Shown: positions 1,922 to 18,317, numbered from the stretch's first letter. The stretch is DNA of 64,000 bases from Candidatus Undinarchaeota archaeon (GCA_964519305.1 CAZFHY010000012.1:67446-131445); one strand, 5' to 3'. The notes: generated by a model not told the origin, from the letters alone. Numbers and translations are program-made.

Positions 1922-2572
1922 CTACCTGATGTTGATCCTGAGCACCGGTAGGCCGATGCGGACCTGGACGCCAGGACCTCGGTAGTGGCGACCGTGCCAT
2001 CTGTGGTGGTGGTGGGGGCCAGGATGGGAGTACGCGTTGCGCGGGTTGCTCCCGCGGAACACCTCGTCGCCATCGGACCAGCCGTCGCCGTCAGTGTCCC
2101 AGTGGGTCAGGTCGGTGCCGTGGTAGACCTCCTTCCCGTCCTTGAGACCGTCCCAGTCCGTGTCGATCGAACGTGGGTCGCTCCCGTACCGGTGCACCTC
2201 GGTGCCGTCGTTGATGCCGTCACGGTCCGTGTCCATGATCCGTGGGTTCGATCCGTAGGTGTTTATCTCGGCATGGTCGCTCAGTCCGTCGCCATCGGTG
2301 TCGATACCACTGCCAGCGCCACTATCGCCCTGGTAGTTGTTACCGCCACCGTTAGTATCGTAATTCCGCCATCCGCCGGACTTGCTGCCGCCCTTGTCGC
2401 GCCAGCCCTCCTGGGCGTTGGCCTCCTCTGCGAGAACGCACACGCCGACTATGGCACCGGCCAATATTGCCGTGCCGGCCATACCGTAGGATGAGAGATC
2501 GTCAGTCTTATGGTAAGCGTCCGCCTTCTCGGCGGTAGCGACACCATCGGTTTCCAGGTCAAGACCGTACAT
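1922..2572 (-). CDS. 'DLE-leader' protein 1: acidic leader, TM/signal helix, thrombospondin type-3-like (DTDGDG) Ca-binding repeats and His/Arg-rich tail
   Basis: Four DTDxDG-x-x-D-x-x-E repeats; hydrophobic segment at about residues 28-47; paralogue of 2642..3364. Confidence 0.8.
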   Translation of the reverse strand: MYGLDLETDGVATAEKADAYHKTDDLSSYGMAGTAILAGAIVGVCVLAEEANAQEGWRDKGGSKSGGWRNYDTNGGGNNYQGDSGAGSGIDTDGDGLSDHAEINTYGSNPRIMDTDRDGINDGTEVHRYGSDPRSIDTDWDGLKDGKEVYHGTDLTHWDTDGDGWSDGDEVFRGSNPRNAYSHPGPHHHHRWHGRHYRGPGVQVRIGLPVLRINIR

Positions 2573-2595
2573 GAGGGATTCCCGGCCCTCGGTCT

Positions 2596-2610
2596 GTTAA
2601 TAAAGTTTTC
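2596..2610 (-). promoter_or_regulatory. BRE/TATA promoter of the AAWCYTTATTA type; copies also at about 3388-3403, 3946-3960, 18344-18359 and 56855-56876
   Basis: The TTATTA core lies 26, 26, 26 and 29 nt upstream of the four leader-gene start codons, consistent with leaderless or near-leaderless transcripts. Confidence 0.65.
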
Positions 2611-2641
2611 CTTTAGTTGTCACCGGCGAGTGACGGCATAC

Positions 2642-3364
2642 CTACCTGAAGGTGAATCTCAGCCCTGGTAGCCGGATTATGACCCGTCCCCCACCGGAGT
2701 GGTGTGGGTGGTGGTATCGCCCGTTGCGATAGCGCCATCCGCCATGGTGGTCCCGCGACCGGTGTCGTCTGTTCCAGCCGGGGTTGGAGCGTGAGTTGCG
2801 CGGGCTGGTACCGTAGCGCACCTCGTCACCGTCGGACCATCCGTCGTTGTCCGTGTCCCAGTCCGTAAGGCTCGTACCGTGGTAGATCTCCCTTCCATCC
2901 CAGAGGCCGTCGCCGTCCGTGTCCCTGCTCAGGGGGTTCGAGCCGTGCCTGAACACCTCGGCACCGTCGCTGATCGAGTCACCATCGGTGTCGTAGATGC
3001 GGGGATTTGTCCTGTAGGTGTGGACCTCCTTGTAATCGGAGATACCGTCGCCGTCGGAGTCCCTGGTGTAGTTGATGTTCGGCTGCTGGTGGACGTGCTC
3101 TTGAACGTGATTTGTCTCGGGCTGGGGCTGATAGACCGGCTCTTGAGGCTGGTCAGGAAGGTTCCCGTTTTCGTCCTGGCCGACGTCGTAGTTACGCCAG
3201 TCGCGTGCCTCCGCCTCCTCTGCGAGCACACCGAGCCCGATTATGAGACCCGCCATGGCGACACCGCCAGCGACACTGTAGGATGAAAGGTCGTCGGCTT
3301 GTCGATATCCGTCGGCCGACTCAGTAGCAGCATATCCTTCCGATTCGAGGTCAAGAGCGTCCAT
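2642..3364 (-). CDS. 'DLE-leader' protein 2: acidic leader, TM/signal helix, TSP3-like repeats and His/Arg-rich tail
   Basis: Four D[ST]DxDG repeats; same architecture as 1922..2572. Confidence 0.8.
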   Translation of the reverse strand: MDALDLESEGYAATESADGYRQADDLSSYSVAGGVAMAGLIIGLGVLAEEAEARDWRNYDVGQDENGNLPDQPQEPVYQPQPETNHVQEHVHQQPNINYTRDSDGDGISDYKEVHTYRTNPRIYDTDGDSISDGAEVFRHGSNPLSRDTDGDGLWDGREIYHGTSLTDWDTDNDGWSDGDEVRYGTSPRNSRSNPGWNRRHRSRDHHGGWRYRNGRYHHPHHSGGGRVIIRLPGLRFTFR

Positions 3365-3517
3365 GAAGCGTGTCAGAGCATGGCAGGGTTAATAAAGATT
3401 GTTACTCCGACGAGCGGAAACTGCGACAGAACAAGCGCTGAGTAAAGCGATTACTGCGTACGTAGGTCTACGGAACTCCGGGCAGGTCCCCGGCCGGGAT
3501 TGTCGAGAGACCGGTCC

Positions 3518-16290: not shown

Positions 16291-16300
16291 GTGTATTATC

Positions 16301-17032
16301 ATGGAGAAACGAGAGATGAAGGTATCGGACCACGTCATCGTATGCGGGTACGACGGTGTCGGCAAGAACACGGTCGAGGAGCTTCTCATGATCGGGAAGA
16401 AGGTGATGGTGGTCGCCCCCGAGCTCACCAACGAGGAGATGGAGTACCTCTCCGAGCATCTCGTGGGCGTTGTGAGCGGCGATCCGACGGAGGAGACGAG
16501 CCTCAAGCGGGCCTTCATCGACTCCGCCGATACGATCATCGCTGCGCTCCCGCAGGTGGGCAACAATGTCTTCATTGCCCTTACCGCCCGGGACCTGAAC
16601 CCGGACATCCGCATCATCGCCCGCTCGGACCAGTACTCGGAGTCCACCAAGCGCAAGTTCGTCCGCACCGGTGCCGAGCGTGTAGTCTCCCCGTACGTCA
16701 TCGGCGGGTACATCCTTGCACGCGCGGCCACCCGGCCCTACTCGGCCGAGTTCCTCAACGACGCGCTGACGTCCACCTACGGTATCGAGATCAACGAGGT
16801 CCAGGTGCCCGAGGACGGGTCTGTCGCTGGTAAGAAGCTCGATGAGCTGGACATCAAGGGCAGGACCGGTGCACTGGTCGTAGCCGTCAAATTACCGGGG
16901 GACGATCTGGACAAGACGTTCGTGAAGAACCCACCACCGGACACGAAGCTCGTGCCCGGTAGCTGGGTCGTGGCCATCGGCTGGCCCAAGGAACTCAACC
17001 TCCTGAAGCGTCTCATAGAGTCGCTGGAGTGA
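16301..17032 (+). CDS. TrkA/RCK domain protein (soluble)
   Basis: HVIVCGYDGVG, GDPT and TrkA-C motifs. Confidence 0.87.
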   Translation: MEKREMKVSDHVIVCGYDGVGKNTVEELLMIGKKVMVVAPELTNEEMEYLSEHLVGVVSGDPTEETSLKRAFIDSADTIIAALPQVGNNVFIALTARDLNPDIRIIARSDQYSESTKRKFVRTGAERVVSPYVIGGYILARAATRPYSAEFLNDALTSTYGIEINEVQVPEDGSVAGKKLDELDIKGRTGALVVAVKLPGDDLDKTFVKNPPPDTKLVPGSWVVAIGWPKELNLLKRLIESLE

Positions 17033-17059
17033 GCTCCGGACAGCGTCGGGCCCAGGTGA

Positions 17060-17518
17060 CTATTCGTCCTCGGTCTGTGGCGCCAGCCTATAGGCCGCTA
17101 CGGGTACGATGCCGCCCTTCTCTCCCGGAAGGAGCCGGAAAGGGACCTCGACGGTAGCGTCAGAGACCTGGAATCCAAAGACGGGATCGAGTTCTACGTT
17201 GAGCTCGTACGTGACCTTGAGGATGCCGTCCTCCCATGGATTCTCGCTCTCGCCGGTCTTCTCGTACTTGAGCGTCCTTAGCTCACCGAAATCCTCGCTG
17301 TCCTCGAAATAGCCCTTAAGCTCGTCGAGAACGCCTCGTGCCTGGTGAAGGATGCTCTCCTGGTAGAGTCCGTTCGAAACGGGCTCGAGTGTCTTGAATC
17401 CCTGGATGCATCTCTCGACCGCGTCGGCGTCCTGGTAGTTCTCGGGCGTCTCGAGAGTCTCGAGCTTGTCCGCATTATCGTAAATGGAAGTTAAATATCC
17501 ACCGATCTCGTACAACAT
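17060..17518 (-). CDS. Hypothetical protein, stand-alone 'domain X'
   Basis: Clear paralogue of the N-terminal half of 18453..19268 (MLYEIG.YL..IY.N; PFR..PGEKG.I). Confidence 0.75.
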   Translation of the reverse strand: MLYEIGGYLTSIYDNADKLETLETPENYQDADAVERCIQGFKTLEPVSNGLYQESILHQARGVLDELKGYFEDSEDFGELRTLKYEKTGESENPWEDGILKVTYELNVELDPVFGFQVSDATVEVPFRLLPGEKGGIVPVAAYRLAPQTEDE

Positions 17519-17579
17519 GGAGGTCGCCCGCTCGACGTCCCGGTTTTAAACATACCCTTTGGGTTAGGGGTTCCTGTGC

Positions 17580-18317
17580 CTATTCGGACGAAGAGCTAGA
17601 GGAGCTCGATGAATCGCTGTCGGACTCCATGGCAGCGTCCTTGATGCCGTCGAAGGTCGCTGTTGCGTACAGAACTAGCTTCTTGGTGGCCGCGTCGACA
17701 CCGCTGCGGAACGCAACGTCGTAGGTGTCCGTGAACGAGATGACGCGGGAGTCTATGTCGGCCAGATCGCGGCCGCCCCCGCTCACGTCCAGATGGTTGT
17801 TGATGCGCATCACCTTGTTATCGAGCTCGGCGATGGTGCCGCCAGCGGGATTCCTGACGGTGCTGTCGTAGCCCCAGGACATTACCTTGCCATCGATCTT
17901 GGCGATGAGAGAGCCTTGGGCATCGTACACGTCGAAGTCGTGACCCCAGGCTAGAACCTTACCGTCGATCTTTGCGACGAGGTCCCCGTCGCCATCGAAG
18001 ACGTTGTAATCGTCGCCCCAGCTCAGCCAGGGTTTCTGGATGTAAGCGACGCGGTGCCCTTCCTCGTTGAGGATGTCGTACTGCTTGCGAAGGGAGAGGA
18101 GACGCTCTTCTACACGGAACCTGCCATCGTCGACGGTGAACTCGCTCTCGTTCTCGTACTTCTGGCGACCACCGACGTACGCCACCGCAGCGATGGCACC
18201 TGCAAGGAGTGCGCCATAAGCGATGGCCCTCCCTGAGATGTCATCCGAGGTGGAATAGCCCTCGGCGGCGCTCGAGGTGGCATAGCCAGCACCTTCAAGG
18301 TCTATCCCCCCGAGCAT
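17580..18317 (-). CDS. 'DLE-leader' protein 4: leader, TM and LURP-one/scramblase (tubby C-like) domain
   Basis: Repeated Y.V.D..G..(V/I)A.I..K..SW motif and the terminal DTY.V...D..L segment typical of LURP-one-related proteins. Confidence 0.8.
   Translation of the reverse strand: MLGGIDLEGAGYATSSAAEGYSTSDDISGRAIAYGALLAGAIAAVAYVGGRQKYENESEFTVDDGRFRVEERLLSLRKQYDILNEEGHRVAYIQKPWLSWGDDYNVFDGDGDLVAKIDGKVLAWGHDFDVYDAQGSLIAKIDGKVMSWGYDSTVRNPAGGTIAELDNKVMRINNHLDVSGGGRDLADIDSRVISFTDTYDVAFRSGVDAATKKLVLYATATFDGIKDAAMESDSDSSSSSSSSSE

Follow-up and report, generated by a model that had tools for sequence, protein, structure and literature searches.

Do otherwise unrelated proteins of an uncultured archaeon begin with a common address? 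The question is raised by a 64,000-nt stretch of DNA (CAZFHY010000012.1:67446-131445, the whole of which is called the window here) from contig C12 of the 42-contig, 3,634,172-bp assembly GCA_964519305.1 of a Candidatus Undinarchaeota archaeon. An initial annotation, made from the sequence alone, described in it four minus-strand genes that start with the same acidic motif followed by an Ala/Gly-rich helix, and proposed a new targeting or export signal. We confirmed in the sequence all four open reading frames (ORFs; members 1 to 4, Table 1), the common motif, which begins 2-4 residues after the Met, and the Ala/Gly-rich helix, and found this N-terminal module (N-module) at the start of 34 proteins of the genome. 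In our estimation the chances are even that this common N-terminus is an N-terminal export signal or signal-anchor in a form specific to the lineage, its n-region having been replaced. Throughout, G000 denotes the genome of the window and G001 its single congener, C-numbers are contigs of G000, and L- and P-numbers are sequence labels.

To obtain the family, a hidden Markov model (HMM) was built from five 49-aa N-termini, the fifth copy having been found on C7 by a relaxed regular expression, and searched against 51,117 six-frame ORFs (at least 40 aa) of G000. The five-sequence model detected 29 ORFs at E<0.01, and iteration converged on 33 ORFs with E values from 1e-14 to 5e-7, the next match being at E=0.29; against the reversed ORF set the same model gave no match at E<1e-3 (best E=1.6). 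A weaker 34th member (E=1.8e-4), a 233-aa two-helix protein (L043:12997-13698), was added by a genome profile search. The family accounts for about 1% of the genes in this uncultured marine archaeon and is spread over 13 contigs, often in tandem; the original count of four was an undercount because it was limited to the window. Gene starts and transmembrane (TM) segments were called by simple custom scripts. In 33/33 G000 members model position 1 is preceded by a start codon at a distance of 0-8 codons, and in eight of them an in-frame stop is found 0-2 codons upstream of the start ATG, so that the motif cannot be internal there. The consensus of alignment A1, about 26 aa long, is M-Y-D-x-[DE]-L-[ED]-[TS]-x-G-Y-x5-A-[DE]-G-Y-x3-[DE]-D-L-[SND], with Leu3 conserved in 32/32, Gly7 in 24/33, Tyr8 in 22/33, Tyr17 in 28/33, Asp22 in 33/33 and Leu23 in 29/33 sequences, and the motif is followed in every aligned member by a hydrophobic Ala/Gly-rich segment of about 20 aa. 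The whole-genome HMM search, which had been suggested as a check, hence returned many strictly N-terminal members with diverse cargo (34 in G000). Upstream of the members we saw ordinary archaeal TATA/BRE-like boxes and GGTG/GGAG-like sites, and no family-specific DNA motif in these upstream regions.

Using the profile of alignment A1, we screened 31 genomes and found members in two, G000 (34 matches) and G001 (27 matches; 27-28 members in total), and none in 14 other archaea or in the 15 remaining members of their class, whose genomes measure 0.6-1.2 Mb and are 72-94% complete. The distribution is the same whether the class or the phylum is considered, each comprising 17 genomes with G000 counted in. 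The profile of alignment A3 gave a marginal match in a third genome, G009 (E=4.1e-4), over model positions 23-52, that is, the hydrophobic part only. Among 1,835,955,588 representative proteins, the A1 profile yielded 39 matches at E<=1e-3, of which 36 lie at the extreme N-terminus; P0001, P0032 and P0035, long internally repeated proteins with many interior matches, were counted as false positives. The motif starts at residues 1-6 in 35 of the 36 true matches and at residue 18 in the last, a protein whose 5' end looks over-extended. We retrieved 45 family proteins: 17 are the same, or almost the same, as a G000 or G001 protein, for another 17 the identity is 80-93% or the match spans under 90% of the length, and 11 are less than 80% identical, seven of these at 28-55%. 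There are thus few further metagenome relatives, and the family is, as judged from these searches, confined to one genus-level clade. All named relatives are called 'hypothetical protein' in their sources. No Pfam model matched the N-terminus of any of the 33 G000 members, an NCBIfam scan of the four window proteins (E<=1) had matches in repeat regions only and none on residues 1-55, a PDB sequence profile search with A3 gave no match at E<=1, and the ESM Atlas contained no usable look-alike of the module. The ways in which the initial annotation had expected its proposal to fail were accordingly not encountered: the motif is not limited to four genes (34 in G000, 27-28 in G001), it is N-terminal in 33/33 G000 members and 36/36 true library matches, and no described family in Pfam, NCBIfam or the PDB sequences corresponds to it. 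A literature search found no paper on archaeal signal peptides with a negatively charged n-region, and the passages of PMC10936187 that were consulted do not mention the motif. The two genomes are themselves conspicuous: G000 (3.63 Mb, 99.8% complete, 4.3% contamination) and G001 (about 3.8 Mb) are three to six times bigger than the 15 other genomes of the phylum and class (0.6-1.2 Mb), which points either to a branch with unusually large genomes within a DPANN-type group or to a placement that is doubtful.

Synonymous codons are mixed at the conserved residues of the motif, Leu3 being written CTC 9, CTG 8 and CTT 15 times, Gly7 with all four codons, Leu23 with five codons and Asp22 as GAC 27 and GAT 6 times. 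The similarity is therefore kept at the protein level and not by recent recombination. On this ground we rejected recent DNA copying or gene conversion, and the fear that the motif is a relic of recent shuffling found no support at these invariant residues; codon usage indicates that the motif is under protein-level selection. For the 23 G000-G001 reciprocal-best pairs (among 33 and 27 members), ortholog identity is 79.7% over residues 1-30, 87.9% over residues 31-52 and 83.8% over the remainder. By this measure the whole module is not more constrained than the cargo over the short G000-G001 distance; only key positions are fixed across paralogs.

Beyond residue 55, the 33 G000 proteins fall into 21 BLAST clusters (E<=1e-3). 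The cargoes of the window members differ as had been annotated, with TSP3 repeats in members 1 and 2 (TSP3_bac, E=7e-21 and 2.8e-21), a LURP-one/scramblase-like domain in member 4 (LOR, 28.4 bits with a cut-off of 24.5; Scramblase, 25.3 bits with a cut-off of 25.4) and two hydrophobic helices in member 3, in which no Pfam family was found. Across G000, cargo domains above the cut-off are TSP3_bac in three proteins, Transglut_core in three (L008, L015 and L018, the first also above the cut-off for BTLCP, Peptidase_C93) and LOR in one, while PhageMin_Tail (L016, L025), Transglut_core (L020) and DUF4347 (L012) score just below it; the G001 protein L072 contains seven FG-GAP_3 stretches (E=4e-45). 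Some cargo has relatives with conventional signals: the TSP3 repeats of members are 31-52% identical to repeats of two giant ORFs with ordinary hydrophobic signal peptides, and in the C3 pair the last 55 aa share 51-55% identity with a portion of a conventional lipoprotein precursor (MRRNHIIFTFVVLASIIASGC..). The recognisable cargo (TSP3, transglutaminase-like, FG-GAP) is, by its domain assignments, of extracytoplasmic type. Many members in which no domain was recognised are small (63-136 aa) and contain a single Gly-rich helix or a pair of them. Tandem members occur on C10 (three), C20 (three, four in G001) and C3, C7, C9, C14 and C37 (two each). The C20 cluster (L047, C20:50000-65000, positions 5859-11075; L054 in G001) encodes three tandem N-module proteins of 442-560 aa (four in G001) with long helical repeats, which score just below the PhageMin_Tail and tape-measure (TMP) cut-offs; one G000 copy has an undetermined stretch (X). 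A provirus origin of this cluster, considered for these near-matches, was rejected, the flanks being housekeeping genes (GTPase, AP endonuclease-like, SNO) and unknowns.

The n-region, which the initial annotation had set apart from the basic ones of the Sec, Tat (twin-arginine) and class III signals, is indeed acidic. In a crude screen of 1076 ORFs with an N-terminal hydrophobic segment, the 14 members that were caught had a median net charge of -7 (range -9 to -3) against a median of 0 (quartiles -1, 0 and +2) in the 1062 others; these crude signal and charge screens include spurious ORFs. Up to the DDL the n-region contains 4-10 Asp/Glu, Lys/Arg being absent in 22/33 members, and one Lys/Arg follows within 7 residues after the DDL in 18/33. 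A crude gene set of 3380 ORFs is, as a whole, mildly acidic (13.2% Asp+Glu, 10.4% Lys+Arg) and in this respect not haloarchaeon-like. We rejected an EF-hand-like, Ca-binding reading (DxDxDG) of the string DLETDGY, as its fifth position is variable (D 11, I 6, E 4 and A 4 of 32) and no acidic residue stands at a fixed place further on. An amphipathic helix was rejected as well, since on inspection of A1 the conserved Leu and Tyr are not on one face and two conserved Gly interrupt it. AlphaFold2 (AF2) modelled the 60 N-modules of A3 with a mean predicted local distance difference test score (pLDDT) of 73 as one helix over residues 7-57, the score rising from about 60 in the first 20 residues to 85-89 in residues 31-50. 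For the member 3 subfamily (A2, 134 aa, seven sequences; mean pLDDT 57) it gave helices at 22-50 and 99-133 and strands at 54-96, with residues 1-28 below 50. In these models the motif has the look of a flexible peptide, and the membrane helix behind it is predicted with confidence.

What follows the helix varies between subfamilies. In one of them a lipobox, L-[AS]-G-C/[SG]P[KR] (the slash marks the putative cleavage point), stands directly after the helix in 6/6 sequences (L012/P0044, L064, P0022, P0043, P0048), and the unrelated G001 protein L072 has FLLSGC/TGSS in the same place; the pattern [LVI][ASTVI][GAS]C was found in these two subfamilies only, and none of the four window genes has it. 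The box is of the same type in conventional lipoproteins of this genome, LAGC/SS and ATGC/TS, where it stands behind basic n-regions. The AxA sites annotated in two window genes are present, EEANA/Q in member 1 and EEAEA/R in member 2, both after residue 53. In this TSP3 subfamily Ala is constant at -1 and -3 and position -2 varies (ANA, AEA, AEA, AMA, and AYA in P0028), as it does among the orthologs of member 1 alone (ANA, AEA, AMA). The C14 subfamily keeps ATA/EPGEY, and in many other members an AxA is absent or unclear. Several two-helix members end in basic C-tails: SRRREEENF, HEKRREES, RGRDRDKEKE, RRHRQKDGE and KKWHDEQ.

In the export signal or signal-anchor that we favour, an acidic n-region of about 26 aa, predicted to be unstructured or weakly helical, would stand in place of the short basic one, the Ala/Gly-rich helix of about 20 aa would serve as the h-region, and the lipobox or AxA would be the c-region in some subfamilies. 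On insertion of the helix the N-terminus would stay cytoplasmic, and the variable C-terminal part would come to lie outside; cleavage would probably remove the module from proteins with a lipobox or AxA, and in members lacking a cleavage site it would stay as a membrane anchor. A factor that acts during biogenesis would read the acidic peptide, be it for sorting, timing or retention, much as the YSIRK and ESPR motifs modulate Sec export. An export or anchor role with the N-terminus inside is suggested because the module combines a strict N-terminal position with the n-h-c layout and a lipobox or AxA in four subfamilies, and also because of the exported-type cargo, the homologs with conventional signals and the basic C-tails of the hairpin members; these C-tails in several 2-TM members would fit an N-in/C-in topology. 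As lipobox cleavage would remove the module, its function in those proteins would lie before or during translocation, which favours a role in biogenesis over purely post-insertion docking.

Several points weigh against this reading. The classical charge-difference rule expects an N-tail of charge -7 with almost no Lys/Arg to be N-out, the opposite of the proposed topology, and Lys+Arg density does not separate the two sides, being 0.063 per residue before the helix and 0.070 after it in 56 one-helix proteins, and 0.058 in the N-tail, 0.071 at the loop start, 0.084 at the loop end and 0.094 in the C-tail in 15 two-helix proteins. The h-region of about 20 residues exceeds that of a typical cleaved signal, AxA easily arises by chance in Ala-rich sequence, and topology and cleavage are both inferred from sequence. 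The cargo type is known for a minority of members, 26/33 G000 proteins being without an above-cut-off Pfam domain, and the LURP-one/scramblase-like cargo is not obviously extracytoplasmic. The first 30 residues are conserved no better than the rest between G000-G001 orthologs (79.7% vs 83.8%). In addition, a neighbourhood analysis of the members found no gene that consistently accompanies them, and thus no candidate reader.

A bolder version, which we regard as unlikely, makes the acidic motif the address of a previously unknown targeting route, with a dedicated receptor or insertase recognising [DE]L[ED][TS]xGY...GYxxx[DE]DL; this reader would hold the negative n-region in the cytoplasm against the membrane potential and deliver about 34 envelope proteins. 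Alternatively, an ordinary signal-anchor handled by Sec and the signal recognition particle would do the targeting, and the acidic peptide would be a cytoplasmic linear motif that takes no part in it and docks, after insertion, to a common partner (a scaffold, protease or adaptor) that would cluster, regulate or degrade these envelope proteins. A few spaced conserved residues (L3 32/32, Y17 28/33, D22 33/33, L23 29/33) are the pattern of a linear binding motif, the low AF2 confidence for the first 20-28 residues (pLDDT <50; about 60 on the 60 N-modules) agrees with this, many members without a plausible cleavage site look like permanent anchors, and a seven-member soluble family lies 26-820 nt from three members. 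The lipobox subfamilies, and probably those with AxA, would nevertheless lose the module on export, which makes a post-insertion role inapplicable there, and most members have no accompanying partner gene; we find docking doubtful for the family, while for uncleaved members it may apply.

Were the orientation reversed, as for a translocated N-tail of type III (N-out/C-in) inserted in a Pf3-coat-like or YidC-type manner, the acidic tail would be extracellular and the variable part cytoplasmic. With about 26-30 residues, a net charge of about -7 and, in 22/33, no Lys/Arg before the DDL, the N-tail has properties that favour its translocation; it is more negative than the flank on the other side of the helix, and the LURP-one/scramblase-like cargo would suit the cytoplasmic face. 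Yet a lipobox after the helix in two unrelated subfamilies would be senseless with a cytoplasmic C-terminal side, as would the FG-GAP, TSP3 and transglutaminase-like cargo and the domains related to conventionally exported proteins of the same genome, and the basic C-tails of the 2-TM members would face outwards, so that this orientation appears improbable. The module could also be an inherited anchor that has no address function, the N-terminal membrane domain of a single expanded, fast-evolving paralogous family in which the C-terminal parts diverged or were swapped and the motif was kept for structure at the membrane interface, for example capping or pairing of glycine-zipper helices. The frequent tandem arrangement (three members on C10, three on C20, two on each of five contigs), the many small proteins (63-136 aa) with Gly-rich helices, the weak sub-threshold matches to Gly-zipper_Omp (E=0.046) and to a holin family (E=0.026) and the restriction to one genus-level clade are what such an origin would leave. 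We think it improbable, since the 21 BLAST clusters include unrelated TSP3, transglutaminase, FG-GAP and LOR domains; the module has therefore been combined with different domains, which common descent of whole proteins cannot explain, and a strict N-terminal position with a lipobox or AxA after the helix is a feature of signal peptides.

If the topology with the N-terminus inside is right, a positive n-region is less universal than thought or an additional factor reads the tag, and it is this tension between the expected N-out flip and the proposed N-in orientation that gives the finding its interest. A dedicated route, if true, would mirror Tat and Sec recognition with the charge inverted, and no export signal before it would have been defined by an acidic n-region. 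In practice, one HMM is a simple handle on a coherent set of surface proteins of an uncultured archaeon and may help to define how its envelope is built; the restriction to one small clade limits generality, and experiments depend on heterologous hosts.

Table 1. Positions of the N-module genes and their parts in the window, with one conventional lipoprotein-type signal for contrast (counted from the first nucleotide of the window; a slash marks the putative cleavage point).
Feature	Position	Strand	Description
Member 1, ORF	1922..2572	-	216 aa; N-module, AxA, four TSP3 repeats, His/Arg-rich stretch and basic C-tail (..VQVRIGLPVLRINIR)
Member 1, acidic n-region motif	2492..2563	-	Residues 4-27, LDLETDG..TDDLS; alignment A1
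Member 1, h-region/TM helix	2429..2485	-	Residues 30-48, Ala/Gly-rich; Kyte-Doolittle mean 2.12
Member 1, candidate signal-peptidase I site A-N-A/Q	2414..2422	-	Residues 51-53
Member 2, ORF	2642..3364	-	240 aa; N-module, AxA, TSP3 repeats, His/Arg-rich stretch and basic C-tail (..RVIIRLPGLRFTFR)
Member 2, acidic n-region motif	3284..3355	-	Residues 4-27; alignment A1
Member 2, h-region/TM helix	3221..3277	-	Residues 30-48; Kyte-Doolittle mean 2.07; AF2 (A3) pLDDT 85-89 for residues 31-50
Member 2, candidate signal-peptidase I site A-E-A/R	3206..3214	-	Residues 51-53; kept in the G001 ortholog and P0040
Member 3, ORF	3518..3922	-	134 aa from the ATG; N-module, small beta-rich middle, second TM helix and basic C-tail SRRREEENF
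Member 3, acidic n-region motif	3845..3916	-	Residues 3-26; alignment A1; AF2 pLDDT <50 for residues 1-28
Member 4, ORF	17580..18317	-	245 aa; N-module, LURP-one/scramblase-like domain and Ser-rich acidic tail
Member 4, acidic n-region motif	18234..18305	-	Residues 5-28; alignment A1
Member 4, h-region/TM helix	18171..18227	-	Residues 31-49; Kyte-Doolittle mean 1.87
Conventional lipoprotein-type signal (contrast, not a family member)	46255..46602	+	Basic n-region and lipobox (MDRRYLAAVLVVAALLAGC/SS)

Members 1 and 2 match the N-module HMM at E=1.4e-14 and 1.1e-14, the former having L053 as its G001 ortholog; the ORF of member 3 can be extended upstream to a GTG at 3928, and member 4 has a 90%-identical ortholog on L052. 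The hydrophobic segments of the four proteins lie at about residues 25-49 on the Kyte-Doolittle scale. The two TSP3 members (window 1922-1966 and 2642-2686) also have a common basic C-tail, R-[IV]-x-I-[RG]-[LI]-P-[GV]-[LF]-[RD]-[FI]-x-[FI]-R, which occurs in L026 and L021 as well and is preceded in the window genes by a His/Arg-rich stretch (HHHHRWHGRHYRG; RRHRSRDHH..HHPHH). Among all six-frame ORFs its regular expression was found only in N-module proteins and four unrelated short ORFs, and the tail may be a second, C-terminal attachment element.

Around the members, a dedicated translocase, protease or scaffold, as had been imagined in the initial annotation, was neither supported nor refuted, there being no consistently co-occurring gene. 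Recurrent neighbours are alcohol dehydrogenases, an ABC ATPase and a PHP protein, probably by coincidence, together with clostripain-like peptidases beside one member and a soluble family of no known kind beside three. The soluble family is acidic and has seven members of 242-346 aa, located on L042 (C7:117000-127000) at 3581-4309, 5673-6566, 6629-7408 and 7413-8453 and at C8:10707-11492, C10:108314-109123 and C9:26270-27037; three of them lie 26-820 nt from N-module genes, and no Pfam match was found in the five that were scanned. The peptidases, three tandem paralogs on L044 (C10:112000-131500; 923-1528, 1539-3062 and 4452-5933), adjoin the transglutaminase-like member L015, and both of those scanned match the clostripain family Peptidase_C11 (E about 1e-42). 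Each paralog has its own, different acidic N-tail (e.g. MIMMYIENENDEVPEREEEEGLTLKQ) before a hydrophobic segment, and the organism may use such tails more widely on its anchored exo-enzymes.

In the window itself, a 294-aa acidic ORF (3994-4878, minus strand), which belongs to no Pfam family and is without paralogs in the genome, lies directly upstream of the three-gene N-module cluster. Member 4 is flanked by two genes (17060-17518 and 18453-19505) with a common domain of about 150 aa (LYEIG[GA]YL..) that belongs to no Pfam family and occurs in these two genes only in the genome, its upstream copy being fused to DUF498 (E=3.2e-15). A 1735-aa ORF on the plus strand (19324-24531) begins in the manner of a basic signal-anchor and contains the string ..PHGCFEQ.., which, read from the translation, resembles an alpha-2-macroglobulin thioester site and is a candidate for one. 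Paralogous gene pairs, each with a large subunit and a 2Fe-2S-like small subunit, lie at 12400-15217 of the window and at C14:70814-73626, a few kb from member 4 and from the C14 N-module pair; they are candidate relatives of molybdenum hydroxylases by their sequence, and the arrangement may be a segmental duplication or a coincidence.

How does the module compare with known signals? To our knowledge, the n-region is basic in all well-studied N-terminal export signals (Sec, Tat, lipoprotein, prepilin), and export is normally blocked when acidic residues are substituted into it. The short basic n-region of Sec class I signals is not found in the module (acidic, median -7), and ordinary basic Sec, Tat and lipoprotein signals coexist with it in the same genome, which also has one archaeosortase-like gene (C8:92294-92827). 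The two module subfamilies with L-[AS]-G-C after the helix resemble the conventional lipoprotein precursors of the genome in this respect and differ from them in an n-region of 26-30 aa that is acidic, against 2-7 aa and basic, and most members have no lipobox. The RG/A-like string of class III (prepilin and archaellin) leaders occurs in few members (NGRGAA, NLRGAA, DGRGLA); most, including the four of the window, do not have it. The glycine-zipper family (PF13488 and relatives) was matched below threshold by L023 only (E=0.046, 14.1 bits with a cut-off of 25). The N-tails of Pf3 coat and M13 procoat are likewise short, rich in Asp/Glu and poor in Lys/Arg before a single helix, but they have no motif common to unrelated proteins and their C-termini are cytoplasmic, whereas the module has cargo of exported type. 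The second half of the module, G-Y-x-x-x-[DE]-D (Tyr in 28/33, Asp/Glu/Asn in 30/33, Asp in 33/33), recalls the YxxxD/E motif of type VII secretion; that motif, however, stands near the C-terminus of small soluble bacterial WXG-type substrates, after a helix-turn-helix, and the module is N-terminal, directly before an archaeal membrane helix, so that the likeness is one of a four-residue pattern only. The analogy to leaders of ribosomally synthesised and post-translationally modified peptides, drawn in the initial annotation, gained no support, with no modification enzymes nearby and ordinary domains as cargo.

Its other analogy, to YSIRK and ESPR, fits better, the module being in the n-h-c position with a lipobox or AxA after the helix in some subfamilies. 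Like YSIRK-G/S, KxYKxGKxW and ESPR, it is a conserved motif before an ordinary hydrophobic core on a subset of envelope proteins, has unrelated passengers and shares its genome with plain signal peptides; the three known motifs are bacterial and of basic or neutral character, whereas the module is strongly acidic and archaeal, and their curated NCBIfam models gave no match on the four window N-termini (E<=1). With Tat signals it shares a conserved motif just before a weakly hydrophobic, Gly/Ala-rich h-region, after which AxA or a lipobox may follow, [ST]-[DE]-D-L standing in place of the Tat [ST]-R-R-x-F-L; its charge is the opposite one and the Arg pair is missing, an RR motif being absent from alignments A1 and A3. 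We rejected a Tat pathway switched to an acidic motif, since the only TatC of the genome keeps its HLEELRRR and KERR stretches, which we take to hold the acidic residues that bind the signal, and canonical RR signals such as MADRRDFLRSALGYGAALAAA are present. Lacking the defining features of Sec, Tat and class III signals and matched by no curated model, the module is not filed under any of them; it is closest in function to signal peptides with conserved n-region extensions and closest in geometry to a Tat signal with the charge inverted.

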